Of a stretch of 64,000 nt of DNA, positions 1,803 through 52,319 are shown one piece after another (positions within the stretch are counted from its first letter, which is position 1; the number at the start of each line of letters is the position of its first letter). Location: NCBI RefSeq assembly GCF_003334785.1, contig NZ_QOWV01000011.1; one strand, written 5' to 3'. This DNA comes from Escherichia coli. GTDB lineage: Bacteria > Pseudomonadota > Gammaproteobacteria > Enterobacterales > Enterobacteriaceae. A model generated the notes under the pieces. It was not told the origin of the DNA. It saw only the letters and a list, made by a program, of their open reading frames with translations, and searched no databases. The translations under genes were made by a program, and so were the position numbers.

Positions 1803-2711
1803 ATGGATCAAATACGACTTACTCACCTGCGGCAACTGGAGGCGGAAAGCATCCACATTATTCGCGAGGTGGCGGCAGAATTCTCAAATCCGGTGATGCT
1901 CTACTCTATCGGTAAAGATTCCAGCGTCATGCTGCATCTGGCGCGCAAGGCGTTTTATCCAGGTACGCTGCCTTTCCCGTTGCTGCATGTCGATACCGGC
2001 TGGAAATTCCGCGAGATGTATGAGTTCCGCGATCGTACGGCGAAAGCCTACGGCTGCGAGCTGCTGGTGCATAAAAACCCGGAAGGCGTGGCGATGGGGA
2101 TTAATCCATTCGTGCACGGCAGCGCGAAACATACCGATATTATGAAAACTGAAGGCCTGAAACAGGCGCTGAACAAATACGGTTTTGATGCCGCCTTCGG
2201 TGGTGCGCGCCGTGACGAAGAGAAATCCCGCGCTAAAGAGCGAATCTACTCTTTCCGTGACCGCTTCCATCGCTGGGATCCGAAAAATCAGCGCCCAGAG
2301 CTGTGGCACAACTACAACGGGCAAATTAACAAAGGCGAAAGCATCCGCGTCTTCCCGCTCTCTAACTGGACCGAGCAGGATATCTGGCAATACATCTGGC
2401 TGGAAAATATCGACATTGTGCCGCTGTATCTCGCTGCGGAACGTCCGGTTCTGGAACGCGACGGTATGTTGATGATGATTGATGACAACCGTATCGACCT
2501 GCAACCGGGCGAAGTGATTAAAAAACGGATGGTGCGTTTCCGTACGCTGGGCTGCTGGCCGCTGACCGGTGCGGTGGAGTCAAATGCACAAACACTACCG
2601 GAGATCATCGAAGAGATGCTGGTTTCTACCACCAGTGAACGTCAGGGCCGCGTGATTGACCGCGACCAGGCGGGGTCTATGGAGCTGAAAAAACGTCAGG
2701 GGTATTTTTAA
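1803..2711 (+). CDS. cysD: Sulfate adenylyltransferase subunit 2, 302 aa
   Basis: Translation [27 protein letters not shown]...; PAPS-reductase-like fold; followed directly by cysN. Confidence 0.96.
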
Positions 2712-2712
2712 G

Positions 2713-4140
2713 ATGAACACCGCACTTGCACAACAAATCGCCAATGAAGGCGGCGTCGAAGCCTGGATGATTGCGCAACAACATAAAAGCCTGCTGCGTT
2801 TTCTGACCTGTGGTAGCGTCGATGACGGCAAAAGTACCCTGATTGGTCGCCTGCTGCACGATACCCGCCAAATCTACGAAGATCAGCTCTCATCGCTGCA
2901 TAACGACAGTAAACGTCACGGCACCCAGGGCGAAAAGCTGGATCTGGCACTGCTGGTGGACGGCCTGCAAGCTGAGCGCGAACAGGGCATCACCATTGAC
3001 GTGGCTTACCGCTATTTCTCTACCGAGAAGCGTAAATTTATTATCGCCGACACCCCAGGGCACGAGCAGTACACCCGCAATATGGCGACTGGCGCATCGA
3101 CATGTGAACTGGCGATCTTACTGATCGATGCCCGTAAAGGCGTGCTCGATCAAACCCGTCGTCACAGTTTTATCTCCACACTGTTGGGGATCAAACATCT
3201 GGTCGTGGCGATCAACAAAATGGATCTGGTGGATTACAGTGAAAAGACGTTCACCCGTATTCGTGAAGATTATCTGACCTTTGCCGGGCAGCTGCCGGGT
3301 AATCTGGATATCCGCTTTGTGCCGCTCTCTGCACTGGAAGGCGACAACGTGGCTTCGCAAAGTGAAAGTATGGCGTGGTACAGCGGTCCAACACTGCTCG
3401 AAGTGCTGGAAACCGTGGAGATCCAGCGAGTGGTGGATGCTCAGCCAATGCGCTTCCCGGTGCAGTACGTTAATCGCCCGAATCTCGATTTTCGTGGTTA
3501 CGCCGGAACGCTGGCATCCGGTCGCGTAGAAGTCGGGCAACGAGTCAAAGTGCTGCCCTCTGGTGTGGAATCAAACGTCGCCCGGATCGTGACTTTTGAT
3601 GGCGATCGCGAAGAAGCCTTTGCCGGAGAAGCGATCACCCTGGTGCTGACGGATGAGATCGACATCAGCCGTGGCGATCTGCTGCTGGCGGCAGACGAAG
3701 CGTTACCAGCTGTGCAGAGCGCGTCGGTGGATGTGGTATGGATGGCGGAACAGCCGCTTTCCCCGGGCCAGAGTTATGACATCAAAATTGCCGGTAAGAA
3801 GACGCGTGCTCGTGTTGATGGCATTCGTTATCAGGTTGATATTAATAACCTTACCCAACGCGAAGTTGAAAACCTGCCGCTGAACGGCATCGGCCTGGTG
3901 GATCTCACTTTTGACGAGCCACTGGTGTTAGATCGTTATCAGCAAAACCCGGTTACCGGTGGGCTGATTTTTATCGATCGCCTGAGCAATGTGACCGTAG
4001 GTGCCGGTATGGTGCATGAGCCAGTTAGCCAGGCAACTGCTGCGCCATCTGAATTTAGTGCATTCGAACTGGAATTGAATGCCCTGGTTCGCCGCCACTT
4101 TCCACACTGGGGCGCGCGCGATTTGCTGGGGGATAAATAA
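2713..4140 (+). CDS. cysN: Sulfate adenylyltransferase subunit 1 (GTPase), 475 aa
   Basis: GTP-binding motifs ([18 protein letters not shown]); starts 2 nt after the cysD stop. Confidence 0.96.
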
Positions 4141-21716: not shown

Positions 21717-23795
21717 TTAAATCAATGCCGATTTATCAATTCCCAGCCGCTTCATCCGTGACAGCAGGGTCGTGCGTTTCAGCCCCAGACGTTGCGCAGC
21801 GCCTTTAGGCCCGGCAACCACGCCGTTGGTTTCTTTCAGCACGCGCACAATCAACTGATATTCATCTTCGCCCTCCAGGGCGACAACCGTTGCGGCAGGC
21901 GGCGTTTCAGGTTCCGGTAAAACAATATCTGGCAATGACAGCTGCAGCACGTTACCGCGTGTTAGCAATACCGCGCGCTCAATGACGTTTTCCAGTTCGC
22001 GTACGTTACCCGGCCACTCCATGTTGCTCAAGGTGCGCAGCGTCTCGGCAGGAATGCTGTCGATATTGCGCCCCAGACGACGGGCAATTTTGAAGGTAAA
22101 GGCTTTCGCCAGCAGCGGAATATCTTCCGGACGCTCGCGTAGTGGCGGCAGGTGAATCGGGAATACGTTCAGGCGGTAATAGAGATCGCTACGGAACTCA
22201 CGGTCGGCGACCATTTTTTTCAGATCGCGGTTAGTCGCGGCGATTAGACGCACGTCCGTCTGAATGATTTTGTTGCTGCCGAGACGTTCAAACTCCTGTT
22301 CCTGCAATACACGCAGCAACTTCGGCTGTAACTCCAGTGGCATATCGCCCACTTCGTCGAGGAACAGGGAGCTTTTATCCGCCAGTTCAAAACGACCGAT
22401 ACGCTGGGCGCTGGCACCGGTAAAAGCCCCACGCTCATGACCAAACAGATCGCTTTCCAGCAATCCGGCAGGCATCGCCGCGCAGTTCATTTTGACCATG
22501 CGGCGATTATTACGCCCACTGAGATTATGGATCGCACGGGCAATCAGCTCTTTACCCGTGCCAGTTTCACCGAGGATCAGCACGGTACTGTCACTTTGCG
22601 CCACCATTTCAACTTGTTTAAGCACGCTGTACATGGCTTCGCTGCGGCCAATAATCTCGCCAAATTCACTATCAACATTGTTGAGCTGCTCGGTCAGGGC
22701 GAGGTTTTCATCAACCAGCCGTTCTTTCAGACGATGGATTTCCTGATAGGCGAGGGCGTTATCGACAGCGATTGCCACACGTTCGGCAATCTGGCGCAGT
22801 AAATTCAGATTGGTAGTGGTAAACACTTTCTCTTCGCATTGCGCCAGTTTCAGCACGCCCAGCATGGTGTCGCCAGACATCAGCGGTAACAGGCACAAGG
22901 TTTGAATCTGGTTGCCCCAGGTGTCGAACAACATGCGTTCATAGGGGGCTAAATCGTCCCGCTCGTGGAGATTGATCAGCAGCATCTCTTTACTTTTGAA
23001 CACGCGTTCGGTGAGGGTTCCGGCTTCATCGACTTCGCTCTGTTCGTGGGCGGGATGCTGTTTATCAAGATAGTGAGTGGAGTAGATGTTGAGTTTGTTT
23101 TTACGGTGGCTGCGTAAGACGATACTGATATCGTCAATGTCGAAATAGTAATGGATTTCTTTGGCGACTTCGCTGACCAGTTCGTCCATATCCAGGCGGG
23201 AAAGCACCGCGTTGGTGATGGCGACCAGGATGCGGAAGTTATCGCGTTCCCGGCATAACAACTCATAGTCGACATTGTTAACGACGCGGCTCTGGATTTG
23301 TTCGGTGACGACAGAAACGATCTGCGTAAATGTTTGCAGACGATTGAACTCTTTTTCGCTCCAGGGGCGATCGTCATAACGAATAAATTCACAGCCACCA
23401 AAAATATGCCCTTCCGCCGCCAGTGGCATCAGGCAATAGTGACCAAATTTTGGGTATAGCCCACCTGCGTCCAGCTGCGGCCAGGTTTCACAAAATTCTT
23501 CGTAACTGCAATGCAGCGTATCAGGGCGCGACAAAATGCTGCGTACCGGACCGTGTGCCAGAACAGTTTCGTCTTCATATTTAATGGGGGTGTCTTTTTC
23601 ACGCGACGCGTAATAAGACGCACGTTGAGTCTGCGCTTGCCACAACACAATAGCCGCGTTGTCGGCGAGCGCAGAACGCTTTACCAGTTGCGAAAGAGCC
23701 TCACACAGCGAGGCCAGATCGGGCTGCTGCAATAGTGTCCGAGTGATGTCGAACAACCCTTGTTGTCCGAGATCACTCATCGGTGTATATGACAT
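21717..23795 (-). CDS. fhlA: Formate hydrogenlyase transcriptional activator FhlA (sigma54-dependent enhancer-binding protein), 692 aa
   Basis: Start at the ATG giving MSYTPMSDLGQQ... (ORF track extends 12 codons upstream); AAA+ sigma54-interaction domain GETGTGKE...GAFTGA; C-terminal HTH. Confidence 0.93.
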   Translation of the reverse strand: MSYTPMSDLGQQGLFDITRTLLQQPDLASLCEALSQLVKRSALADNAAIVLWQAQTQRASYYASREKDTPIKYEDETVLAHGPVRSILSRPDTLHCSYEEFCETWPQLDAGGLYPKFGHYCLMPLAAEGHIFGGCEFIRYDDRPWSEKEFNRLQTFTQIVSVVTEQIQSRVVNNVDYELLCRERDNFRILVAITNAVLSRLDMDELVSEVAKEIHYYFDIDDISIVLRSHRKNKLNIYSTHYLDKQHPAHEQSEVDEAGTLTERVFKSKEMLLINLHERDDLAPYERMLFDTWGNQIQTLCLLPLMSGDTMLGVLKLAQCEEKVFTTTNLNLLRQIAERVAIAVDNALAYQEIHRLKERLVDENLALTEQLNNVDSEFGEIIGRSEAMYSVLKQVEMVAQSDSTVLILGETGTGKELIARAIHNLSGRNNRRMVKMNCAAMPAGLLESDLFGHERGAFTGASAQRIGRFELADKSSLFLDEVGDMPLELQPKLLRVLQEQEFERLGSNKIIQTDVRLIAATNRDLKKMVADREFRSDLYYRLNVFPIHLPPLRERPEDIPLLAKAFTFKIARRLGRNIDSIPAETLRTLSNMEWPGNVRELENVIERAVLLTRGNVLQLSLPDIVLPEPETPPAATVVALEGEDEYQLIVRVLKETNGVVAGPKGAAQRLGLKRTTLLSRMKRLGIDKSALI

Positions 23796-27486: not shown

Positions 27487-27517
27487 ATCGCCTCCCATTA
27501 ACTATTGCCAGCTACAA

Positions 27518-27533
27518 GCAATAATTGTGCCAG
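27518..27533 (-). promoter_or_regulatory. sigma54 (-24/-12) promoter for the hyp operon: CTGGCACAATTATTGC on the minus strand
   Basis: GG-N10-GC with TGGCAC and TTGC elements, about 32 nt upstream of the hypA ATG. Confidence 0.7.
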
Positions 27534-27554
27534 TGTTGATTATCCCTGCGGTGA

Positions 27555-27606
27555 ATAATGTCGATGATGTCGAAATGACACGTCGACACGGCGACGAAAT
27601 TCATCT
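27555..27606. promoter_or_regulatory. Candidate FhlA upstream activating sequence between the divergent hyp and hyc promoters
   Basis: Cluster of repeated TGTCGA / CGACGAAAT motifs (ATGTCGATGATGTCGAAATGACACGTCGACACGGCGACGAAATTCA) between the two sigma54 promoters. Confidence 0.4.
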
Positions 27607-27645
27607 TTAGCTTAAAAATCTCTTTAATAACAATAAATTAAAAGT

Positions 27646-27661
27646 TGGCACAAAAAATGCT
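27646..27661 (+). promoter_or_regulatory. sigma54 (-24/-12) promoter for the hyc operon: TGGCACAAAAAATGCT
   Basis: GG-N10-GC with a TGGCAC -24 element, about 40 nt upstream of the hycA ATG. Confidence 0.7.
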
Positions 27662-27697: not shown

Positions 27698-28159
27698 ATG
27701 ACTATTTGGGAAATAAGCGAGAAAGCCGATTACATCGCACAGCGGCATCGTCGCCTACAGGACCAGTGGCACATCTACTGCAATTCGCTGGTTCAGGGGA
27801 TCACGTTATCGAAAGCGCGCCTGCATCACGCCATGAGCTGCGCGCCGGACAAAGAACTCTGTTTCGTCCTTTTTGAACATTTTCGCATTTACGTCACCCT
27901 GGCGGATGGCTTTAACAGCCACACCATCGAGTATTACGTCGAAACAAAAGATGGCGAAGACAAACAGCGGATTGCGCAGGCGCAACTGAGCATTGACGGC
28001 ATGATTGATGGCAAGGTCAACATCCGCGATCGCGAACAGGTTCTGGAACACTATCTCGAAAAAATCGCTGGCGTTTACGACAGCTTATACACCGCTATTG
28101 AAAACAATGTGCCGGTGAATTTAAGCCAACTGGTAAAGGGACAAAGCCCGGCAGCATGA
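27698..28159 (+). CDS. hycA: Formate hydrogenlyase regulatory protein HycA, 153 aa
   Basis: Translation MTIWEISEKADYIAQRHRRLQDQWHIYCNSL... Confidence 0.93.
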   Translation: MTIWEISEKADYIAQRHRRLQDQWHIYCNSLVQGITLSKARLHHAMSCAPDKELCFVLFEHFRIYVTLADGFNSHTIEYYVETKDGEDKQRIAQAQLSIDGMIDGKVNIRDREQVLEHYLEKIAGVYDSLYTAIENNVPVNLSQLVKGQSPAA

Positions 28160-28283
28160 GCTGAGGCTTTGCCCGTTTTGCAGGCGTTACGCCTGTTTGG
28201 GGATGGGCGTGTCGATGAGTGTCGAAAATGACATTTCATCGGCATGTTTTCGTCAAAAATGACAATCACCTGAGGAATGCCTG

Positions 28284-38865: not shown

Positions 38866-39879
38866 ATGATGACGACGATGCTGGAAGTGGCGAAGCGCGC
38901 CGGGGTTTCAAAAGCGACCGTTTCCCGCGTGCTTTCAGGTAATGGCTACGTCAGCCAGGAGACTAAAGATCGCGTGTTTCAGGCGGTAGAAGAGAGCGGT
39001 TACCGTCCAAACTTGCTGGCGCGCAATCTGTCGGCGAAGAGTACTCAGACGCTGGGGCTGGTAGTGACCAACACGCTTTACCACGGCATTTATTTTAGTG
39101 AATTACTCTTTCATGCCGCGCGAATGGCGGAAGAGAAAGGGCGGCAGTTGCTATTGGCAGATGGTAAACACAGCGCAGAAGAAGAGCGCCAGGCGATTCA
39201 GTATCTGCTGGATCTGCGCTGCGACGCGATCATGATTTACCCGCGTTTTTTAAGCGTGGATGAGATCGATGACATCATTGACGCGCACAGTCAGCCGATA
39301 ATGGTGCTTAATCGCCGCCTGCGCAAAAACAGCAGCCATAGCGTCTGGTGCGATCATAAACAGACCAGTTTTAACGCCGTGGCAGAGTTGATAAACGCCG
39401 GGCATCAGGAGATTGCTTTCCTTACCGGCTCGATGGATTCCCCCACCAGCATTGAACGTCTTGCCGGGTATAAAGACGCGCTGGCGCAGCATGGTATTGC
39501 GCTCAATGAAAAACTTATCGCTAACGGTAAATGGACGCCTGCCAGCGGGGCCGAAGGGGTAGAAATGTTGCTCGAACGTGGGGCTAAATTTAGCGCGTTA
39601 GTTGCCAGTAACGACGATATGGCGATAGGTGCGATGAAAGCGTTACACGAGCGCGGCGTAGCGGTGCCAGAGCAGGTGTCAGTTATCGGATTCGATGATA
39701 TCGCTATTGCCCCCTACACCGTTCCGGCGCTCTCCAGCGTAAAAATTCCGGTGACTGAGATGATTCAGGAAATTATTGGACGGCTGATTTTTATGCTCGA
39801 TGGCGGGGATTTCTCACCGCCGAAAACCTTCAGCGGAAAACTGATCCGCCGCGACTCACTCATTGCTCCTTCGCGATAA
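38866..39879 (+). CDS. ascG: LacI/GalR-family repressor of the asc operon, about 337 aa (start approximate: 38860, 38866 or 38869)
   Basis: HTH MTTMLEVAKRAGVSKATVSRVLSG plus periplasmic-binding-like domain; ORF-track start at 38803 lacks an RBS. Confidence 0.88.
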   Translation: MMTTMLEVAKRAGVSKATVSRVLSGNGYVSQETKDRVFQAVEESGYRPNLLARNLSAKSTQTLGLVVTNTLYHGIYFSELLFHAARMAEEKGRQLLLADGKHSAEEERQAIQYLLDLRCDAIMIYPRFLSVDEIDDIIDAHSQPIMVLNRRLRKNSSHSVWCDHKQTSFNAVAELINAGHQEIAFLTGSMDSPTSIERLAGYKDALAQHGIALNEKLIANGKWTPASGAEGVEMLLERGAKFSALVASNDDMAIGAMKALHERGVAVPEQVSVIGFDDIAIAPYTVPALSSVKIPVTEMIQEIIGRLIFMLDGGDFSPPKTFSGKLIRRDSLIAPSR

Positions 39880-40027
39880 ACATTGTCATCACATGTCATC
39901 GTCACTAGTGTCGATGACATCGTTTTTCCTGCATTACAGAAATTAATTTCCTTAAATAACAGTAAATTAAAAACTGGCATGATTTGTGAATGTATCGGCG
40001 CATTAACTGTCATTGCTGGAGAATTTG

Positions 40028-40555
40028 ATGAACCGTTTCATCATTGCTGACGCGAGTAAATGTATTGGTTGCCGTACCTGTGAAGTAGCGTGCGTGGTTT
40101 CTCATCAGGAAAATCAGGACTGTGCATCGCTGACCCCGGAAACTTTTTTACCGCGTATCCATGTCATTAAAGGTGTGAACATTTCCACGGCGACAGTTTG
40201 CCGTCAGTGTGAAGATGCACCGTGCGCTAACGTCTGCCCGAATGGTGCTATCAGCCGTGATAAAGGGTTTGTTCATGTGATGCAGGAACGTTGCATTGGT
40301 TGCAAAACCTGCGTTGTGGCTTGCCCGTATGGTGCGATGGAAGTGGTGGTACGTCCGGTGATCCGCAACAGCGGCGCGGGTCTGAATGTACGGGCTGACA
40401 AAGCCGAAGCCAATAAATGCGACCTGTGCAACCATCGTGAAGACGGCCCGGCGTGTATGGCGGCTTGCCCGACTCATGCGCTGATTTGTGTCGATCGTAA
40501 TAAACTTGAACAACTGAGCGCAGAAAAACGCCGCCGTACGGCGCTGATGTTCTAA
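40028..40555 (+). CDS. hydN: Electron transport protein HydN (4Fe-4S ferredoxin-type), 175 aa
   Basis: Start at the ATG giving [22 protein letters not shown]...; four Fe-S cluster motifs. Confidence 0.92.
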
Positions 40556-40707
40556 AAATCTTACAGAACTGTTCTGGCATCAAAGGAATTCCCGGAAATA
40601 TTCGTAGAATACGGAGCGGGCGGTATCGCCGACCTGTGACTGCCGGATGCGACGCTGTCGTGTCCGGCAGGGCGGGTTACGCAATTCATGATGGCGGGAA
40701 TAACTCA

Positions 40708-50781: not shown

Positions 50782-52319
<1,538 letters not shown>

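Follow-up and report, generated by a model that had tools for sequence, protein, structure and literature searches.

In work ascribed to Hopper et al. and dated to 1994, FhlA is reportedly the activator of hyc, and IHF is said to assist activation there. The hydN-hypF genes belong to the formate regulon and are under FhlA/formate control (PMC11841067); FhlA is named as their activator in published tables and reviews (PMC11841067, PMC3844500, PMC4987338). FhlA sites have been described by a matrix built on 13 sites (PMC7658346) and by a 16-mer consensus, CATTTCGTACGAAATG, which is attributed to Leonhartsberger 2000 (as quoted in PMC4987338).

Here, the ascG-hydN spacer of Escherichia coli was analysed together with its surroundings; the window denotes the whole stretch of DNA that was analysed, 64 kb in length. 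The 1.2 kb around the spacer match all complete E. coli genomes (5426 of 5426), and the window is E. coli chromosome. The gene order at the locus is ascG, hydN and then hypF. HydN and FhlA both score above their NCBIfam equivalog cut-offs, and fhlA is found in the same genome and within the window, 16 kb from the hydN control region (Table 1). The spacer is very probably the cis-regulatory region of hydN-hypF, made up of an FhlA enhancer, an A/T-rich spacer with an IHF-like site, and a weak sigma-54 promoter. It is the already known formate-inducible hydN-hypF control region, and as such the finding is correct and ordinary.

Table 1. Features of the hydN control region and of related loci in the window; distances are counted from the predicted transcription start of hydN
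Feature	Position	Strand	Distance	Remarks
fhlA	21720-23795	minus		protein 1545 bits against NF011958 (cut-off 830)
Divergent hyp/hyc promoters	27517-27661			
hycA promoter and enhancer	27556-27661			
hycA-hycB spacer	28210-28264			top FhlA-matrix matches TGTCGAAAATGACA (16.4 bits) and CGTCAAAAATGACA, preceded by TGTCGATGA
ascG-hydN spacer	39880-40027			148 bp; ascG ends at 39879, hydN ATG at 40028 (RefSeq annotation)
Upstream repeat TGTCATCA	39884-39891	+	-117 to -110	first TGTCATC copy
26-bp palindrome TGTCATCGTCA-CTAG-TGTCGATGACA	39894-39919		-107 to -82	proposed FhlA enhancer (UAS); holds the second and third TGTCATC copies
Inner core CGTCA-CTAG-TGTCG	39900-39913			the spacer's top match to the published FhlA matrix
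A/T-rich spacer, enhancer to promoter	39921-39956	+		starts with CGTTTTTCC in Escherichia
IHF-like site TAACAGTAAATTA	39957-39969	+	-44 to -32	two mismatches to WATCAANNNNTTR
Sigma-54 promoter TGGCATGATTTGTGAA	39975-39990	+	-26 to -11	-24 GG canonical; -12 TGA, not TGC
Predicted transcription start and 27-nt leader	40001-40027	+		start at about 40001; Shine-Dalgarno GGAG at 40018-40021
REP-like imperfect palindrome CTGCCGGATGCGACGCTGTCGTGTCCGGCAG	about 40631-40672			in the 152-bp hydN-hypF gap

Repeats shared with the hyc and fdhF enhancers

One of the closest counterparts of the hydN region is the hycA promoter and enhancer, which has its elements in the same order: a cluster of YGWCR pentamers with the 9-mer TGTCGATGA, an A/T-rich spacer, AATAACARTAAATTAAAA-NN-TGGCA, and a -12 element. 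The two regions share a 25-nt block, AATAACARTAAATTAAAA-NN-TGGCA, at 27626-27650 for hyc and 39955-39979 for hydN, with none expected by chance. This block, which can also be written AATAACA(A/G)TAAATTAAAA-NN-TGGCA, includes the IHF-like site, and its presence in both promoters suggests that they share either ancestry or a constraint. Unlike hydN, hyc has a canonical -12 (TGCT), a higher score with a matrix of 186 sigma-54 promoters (14.9 versus 10.6 bits) and a roughly 8-fold higher sigma-54 ChIP signal (91 versus 11). The enhancers also differ in layout, with direct and inverted pentamers mixed at hyc and one long palindrome at hydN. The distance from TGTCGATGA to the TGG of the -24 element is 87 nt at hyc and 66 nt at hydN, a difference of about two helical turns.

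Another enhancer of the same format is that of fdhF in E. coli K-12. Its core, CGTCA-AAAC-TGACG, is accompanied by further flanking YGWCR pentamers, and the ten specified bases of this core are those found in the hydN core of most genera. It lies 78 nt from TGG, compared with 68 nt for hydN in E. coli. Unlike hydN, fdhF has TGCA, a canonical form, at -12 and lacks the outer TGTCATC arms.

The first-pass annotation of this DNA had pointed to three TGTCATC/GATGACA half-sites upstream of hydN, to an 8-bp inverted repeat among them, and to a resemblance to the hyc-hyp UAS, and each of these observations was borne out. The half-sites start at 39884 (+), 39894 (+) and 39913 (-). TGTCATC occurs eight times in the 64-kb window against 7.8 expected by chance, and the signal therefore lies in the local clustering: any 7-mer occurring three times within 40 bp was obtained in 13 of 5000 dinucleotide shuffles of the 148-bp spacer. 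The inverted repeat TGTCATCG-N10-CGATGACA, at 39894-39901 and 39912-39919, extends to 14-nt arms that are 93% complementary (39893-39906 and 39907-39920), and an equally good palindrome, with 13 matched pairs, arose in none of 1000 shuffles of the spacer. The 26-bp palindrome is unique in the window even when three mismatches are allowed. A search of literature text for its sequence string gave no relevant match.

The resemblance to the hyc enhancer is seen in several patterns. Six copies of the 9-mer TGTCGATGA were counted in the window, where 0.62 are expected; one falls in the hyc enhancer (27559), one in the hycA-hycB spacer (28210) and one in the hydN palindrome (39909). For YGTCR-N4-TGWCR, the window yields 11 matches where 2.6 are expected, among them the hyc, hycA-hycB and hydN regions. 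Ranked by YGWCR pentamers per 45 bp, the hyc enhancer comes first with six and hydN second in the 64 kb with five, over a background of 0.44, although this ranking is not fully independent, as these sites themselves contributed to the generalised pentamer pattern. The palindrome is centred at -94.5 from the predicted transcription start, which fits a UAS range of roughly 80-130 bp before a sigma-54 start, on a fixed helical face.

Published descriptions of FhlA sites fit hydN less closely. With the 13-site matrix, the top matches in the window are at 28220 and 27559, and the hyc and hycA-hycB sites score 15-16 bits, against 7.5 bits for the best 14-mer of the hydN spacer, the inner core CGTCACTAGTGTCG at 39900, which ranks 148 of about 128,000. 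Like the published consensus and matrix, hydN has TGWCR-type half-sites upstream of a sigma-54 promoter; its pentamers are spaced 10, 6, 9 and 6 nt from start to start, mostly unlike the 9-nt period of the matrix. Only 8 of the 16 positions of the consensus CATTTCGTACGAAATG agree with hydN, and this 16-mer was dropped as a test for FhlA sites because it fails to discriminate even the established hyc and hycA-hycB sites, which match at only 9 and 11 of 16.

The modest matrix score leaves room for the reading that the palindrome is the operator of a regulator other than FhlA, for instance the LacI-family protein AscG or the enhancer-binding protein HyfR. HyfR, a close paralogue of FhlA, may bind similar sites. 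In operators of the LacI family the central CG is conserved; the four central bases of the hydN palindrome are, by contrast, its most variable part, with 18 variants, and the palindrome is kept in genomes without an adjacent ascG. An AscG operator was rejected as unlikely on the grounds of this variable centre and of the persistence of the site where ascG is not adjacent. The specific words common to the palindrome and three FhlA enhancers, its enhancer-like distance from a sigma-54 promoter, and the naming of FhlA as activator in published tables further argue against another regulator in place of FhlA, which is highly improbable. HyfR acting in addition would not contradict the proposed FhlA enhancer. 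FhlA contact with the palindrome is putative, resting on the features, their conservation and the likeness to other enhancers, and the upstream repeat is probably an auxiliary FhlA contact.

Other matches were found elsewhere in the window. The hycA-hycB spacer is a further enhancer of the FhlA type, some 700 bp away from the hypA promoter, and we take it to be the one described as the hyp enhancer. A sigma-54-like match, TGGCACATCTACTGCA, lies within the hycA coding sequence at 27767-27782 (+), directed towards hycB; at 15.0 bits, it is the third best in the window. An isolated FhlA-matrix match, TGTCGATGGTGTCA, at 51228-51241 (+) scores 14.2 bits, lies far from the examined sigma-54-like promoters and is probably due to chance.

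Conservation of the palindrome and its spacing

To the E. coli locus were added hydN loci from 80 other species of more than 20 enterobacterial genera, giving 81 in total, and the 165 nt upstream of the ATG were aligned. The strict pattern TGTCATCGTCA-N4-TG(A/T)CGATGACA is present in 77 of the 81 species. Its central tetramer takes 18 forms, and both flanks diverge freely. The counterpart of the upstream repeat in other genera is YGTCRWCA, and its conservation is moderate, at 60-95% per column. The distance from the palindrome centre to TGG falls into two classes one helical turn apart, 57-60 nt in 30 species and 67-70 nt in 47; the spacer length across species likewise forms two classes about 10 bp apart. 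Together with the 78 nt of fdhF, these distances increase by one helical turn at each step. A protein-binding enhancer is predicted to have such invariant arms, a free centre and helical phasing.

Within E. coli, all control elements are unchanged in five divergent strains. In strains L1PEag1 and EcPF18, the flank upstream of the enhancer resembles that of E. albertii, and no ascG is annotated there. A left-arm T to A change in these two strains makes the palindrome perfect against the TGTCG of the right arm, and the three combinations seen at this A/T position fit the W of the FhlA matrix. A fourth TGTCAT, at 40008-40013 in the predicted hydN leader (CTGTCATTGCTGGAGAA), is kept in Escherichia, Citrobacter and Kluyvera and not in Klebsiella.

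The genes around hydN vary among the genera. The ascG-hydN adjacency is widespread, being found in Citrobacter, Klebsiella, Kluyvera, Enterobacter and others; the annotation of the K-12-type strain E. coli ER1709 gives ascG as a frameshifted pseudogene (positions 2471-3480 of locus L001). In Salmonella and Cedecea, hycI rather than ascG is upstream, and hydN directly follows the hyc operon. On the other side of hydN, an fdhF-like gene (start MKKITSVCPYCGAGC...) replaces hypF in Kluyvera, Kosakonia, Cedecea, Superficieibacter and Pseudocitrobacter, and the hydN-fdhF unit of these five genera would therefore be driven by the same enhancer and promoter. Neither difference separates the palindrome from hydN: it is kept with an ascG homologue or hycI upstream, and with hypF or an fdhF-like gene downstream.

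The palindrome could also be, mainly or additionally, the intrinsic terminator of ascG, in the form of an RNA hairpin followed by CGUUUUUCC. The palindrome and CGTTTTTCC together have a terminator-like look: the hairpin of 39893-39920 lies 14 nt past the ascG stop codon, its energy is -13.1 kcal/mol (z = -3.0; wider region -16.1 kcal/mol, z = -2.7), and a run of five T residues, starting 2 nt past the stem, is retained in the sampled E. coli strains. The palindrome, however, is universal and the T-run is not; a run of at least four T residues follows it in 13 of 77 species and is absent in 64. The arm sequence is invariant, with no co-variation save at one A/T position, and loci with hycI in place of ascG upstream have the palindrome too. 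Furthermore, the E. coli stem is rich in AU and contains a U-U mismatch, and a terminator scan of 39700-40200 made no call. In positions 39600-40300, Rfam covariance models gave no match at E-values up to 1. A terminator is thus an unlikely explanation of the palindrome, and such a function would at most be a lineage-specific second use of the enhancer in Escherichia. As an enhancer, the 81-species footprint of the palindrome and one repeat, helically phased, offers defined targets for promoter engineering in hydrogen-production strains.

A weak sigma-54 promoter at hydN

The element singled out in the first-pass annotation, TGGCATGATTTGTGAA, is indeed the sigma-54 promoter. In E. coli, a sigma-54 ChIP-seq peak in the intergenic region before hydN covers CTGGCATGATTTGTGAA, listed as motif OS26, which is identical to positions 39974-39990 of the window; OS26 has a fold-above-threshold of 11 and a matrix score of 9.175 and is flagged as experimentally confirmed in EcoCyc (PMC4591121). 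The same promoter string appears in a table of known sigma-54 promoters, placed at -53 to -36 relative to the ATG (PMC2831329), and reconstituted sigma-54 holoenzyme selects the hydN/ascG spacer in vitro in gSELEX (PMC8743547). ChIP-chip in Salmonella shows binding at the homologous site TGGCACGATTCGTGTA, whose -12 is likewise non-canonical (TGT), and the sigma-54 dependence of hydN-hypF expression there is 13-fold (PMC3844500).

The same annotation had credited this element with a good -24 and with a -12 lacking GC. Compared with TGGCAC-N5-TTGCW, the spacing is exact, the GG is present and canonical, and the -12 is sub-consensus; of its GC, nevertheless, the G is retained and only the C has changed, to A. 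In a compilation of 186 sigma-54 promoters, this position is C in 173 (93%) and A in 9 (5%), and about 7% of the promoters are without this C (matrix in PMC7658346). With this matrix, TGGCATGATTTGTGAA scores 10.6 bits and ranks 22 of 127,970 window positions, and it is therefore not singled out by sequence alone. The hycA, norV and hypA promoters reach 14.9, 16.4 and 18.6 bits, respectively. The low score of hydN fits its low sigma-54 ChIP signal, which is 11 compared with 91 for hycA and 201 for hypA (PMC4591121). Like hydN, other promoters with a non-consensus -12 have the C replaced and keep the -24 GG and the preceding TG. The hydN deviation differs from theirs in being phylogenetically stable, and in other genera it is replaced by a deviation at -24.

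The missing -12 C and the gap between 10.6 bits and the 14.9-18.6 bits of hycA, norV and hypA might suggest that the -12 is too poor for sigma-54 and that hydN-hypF is driven by a sigma-70 or unconventional promoter. Such a promoter is scarcely credible given that precisely this motif is occupied by sigma-54, both in vivo and in vitro (PMC4591121, PMC8743547), and that expression in Salmonella is sigma-54 dependent despite the equally non-canonical TGT (PMC3844500). In addition, a promoter scan found no sigma-70-like hexamer pair in 39700-40200, and all 81 species have the element 50-55 nt upstream of the ATG, with no variation in TGG or in the TG of the -12. The hydN element is thus a weak but genuine, standard enhancer-dependent sigma-54 promoter; the earlier suggestion of an atypical promoter holds only in that the -12 is sub-consensus. 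As the sigma-54 element had already been mapped genome-wide, the discovery value is small, and one gain lies in correcting the description of the -12 as lacking GC.

The start at 40001 was predicted by the rule of PMC4591121, 19 nt after the motif centre, which reproduces the distance of 27 to hydN given in that paper. Relative to this predicted start, GGAG lies at +17 to +20 and the hydN ATG at +27.

Reciprocal -24/-12 degeneracy and a model of activation

The two halves of the promoter deviate from consensus in a reciprocal manner. A canonical -24, TGGCA(C/T), is combined with a -12 of TG(A/T)A in 52 of the 81 species, and a canonical -12, TGCA, with a -24 of TGGAAC, TGGCTC, TGGCGC or TGGCGT in the other 29. 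Both halves are canonical in none of the 81 and degenerate in none. The half-site scores are correlated at r = -0.92, with totals of 9.0-13.8 bits across the 81 species. A Fisher test of the class association is extreme but naive, as it ignores phylogeny. By parsimony, at least three coupled switches are required on a tree of hydN; this hydN-only tree was built because a tree of hydN plus its downstream gene is distorted, the downstream gene being fdhF-like in some genera, and the count is the same on both. The -24/-12 classes cut across the hypF and fdhF operon types.

The literature searched yielded no report of this reciprocal pattern, which may be a new observation. It is compatible both with selection that keeps the promoter weak and with drift at a threshold of binding energy. 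That the hydN promoter is held at a deliberately low sigma-54 affinity across Enterobacteriaceae is a tentative and somewhat doubtful interpretation. If selection is responsible, hydN would provide a naturally occurring case in which stabilising selection acts on the strength of a sigma-54 promoter via reciprocal -24/-12 compensation. The reciprocal degeneracy offers a small case of how evolution tunes the strength of sigma-54 promoters.

For the IHF-like site, the best match to WATCAANNNNTTR anywhere in the 45 nt upstream of TGG was scored in each species. In 53 of the 81 species this match lies at a common offset of 18 nt before TGG; over all offsets, the best match is exact in 13 species and has one mismatch in 25. 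The E. coli site has 7 of the 9 specified bases of WATCAANNNNTTR, a weak consensus with two exact occurrences in the window against 2.4 expected. By analogy with hyc, IHF may have a role at hydN as well.

In the proposed model, formate-bound FhlA would sit on an enhancer of five YGWCR pentamers, formed by the upstream repeat and the palindrome centred at about -95. The A/T-rich spacer with its IHF-like site, presumably bound by IHF, would bend and let the DNA loop. The FhlA ATPase could then reach the closed complex of RNA polymerase and sigma-54 on TGGCAT-N6-TGA at -24/-12, ATP hydrolysis would open this complex, and transcription would start about 27 nt before the hydN ATG. Sigma-54 occupancy at hydN would be low because the -12 base is non-consensus. 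The model builds on features, conservation and enhancer likeness that were observed here, and on published data for sigma-54 binding and dependence.
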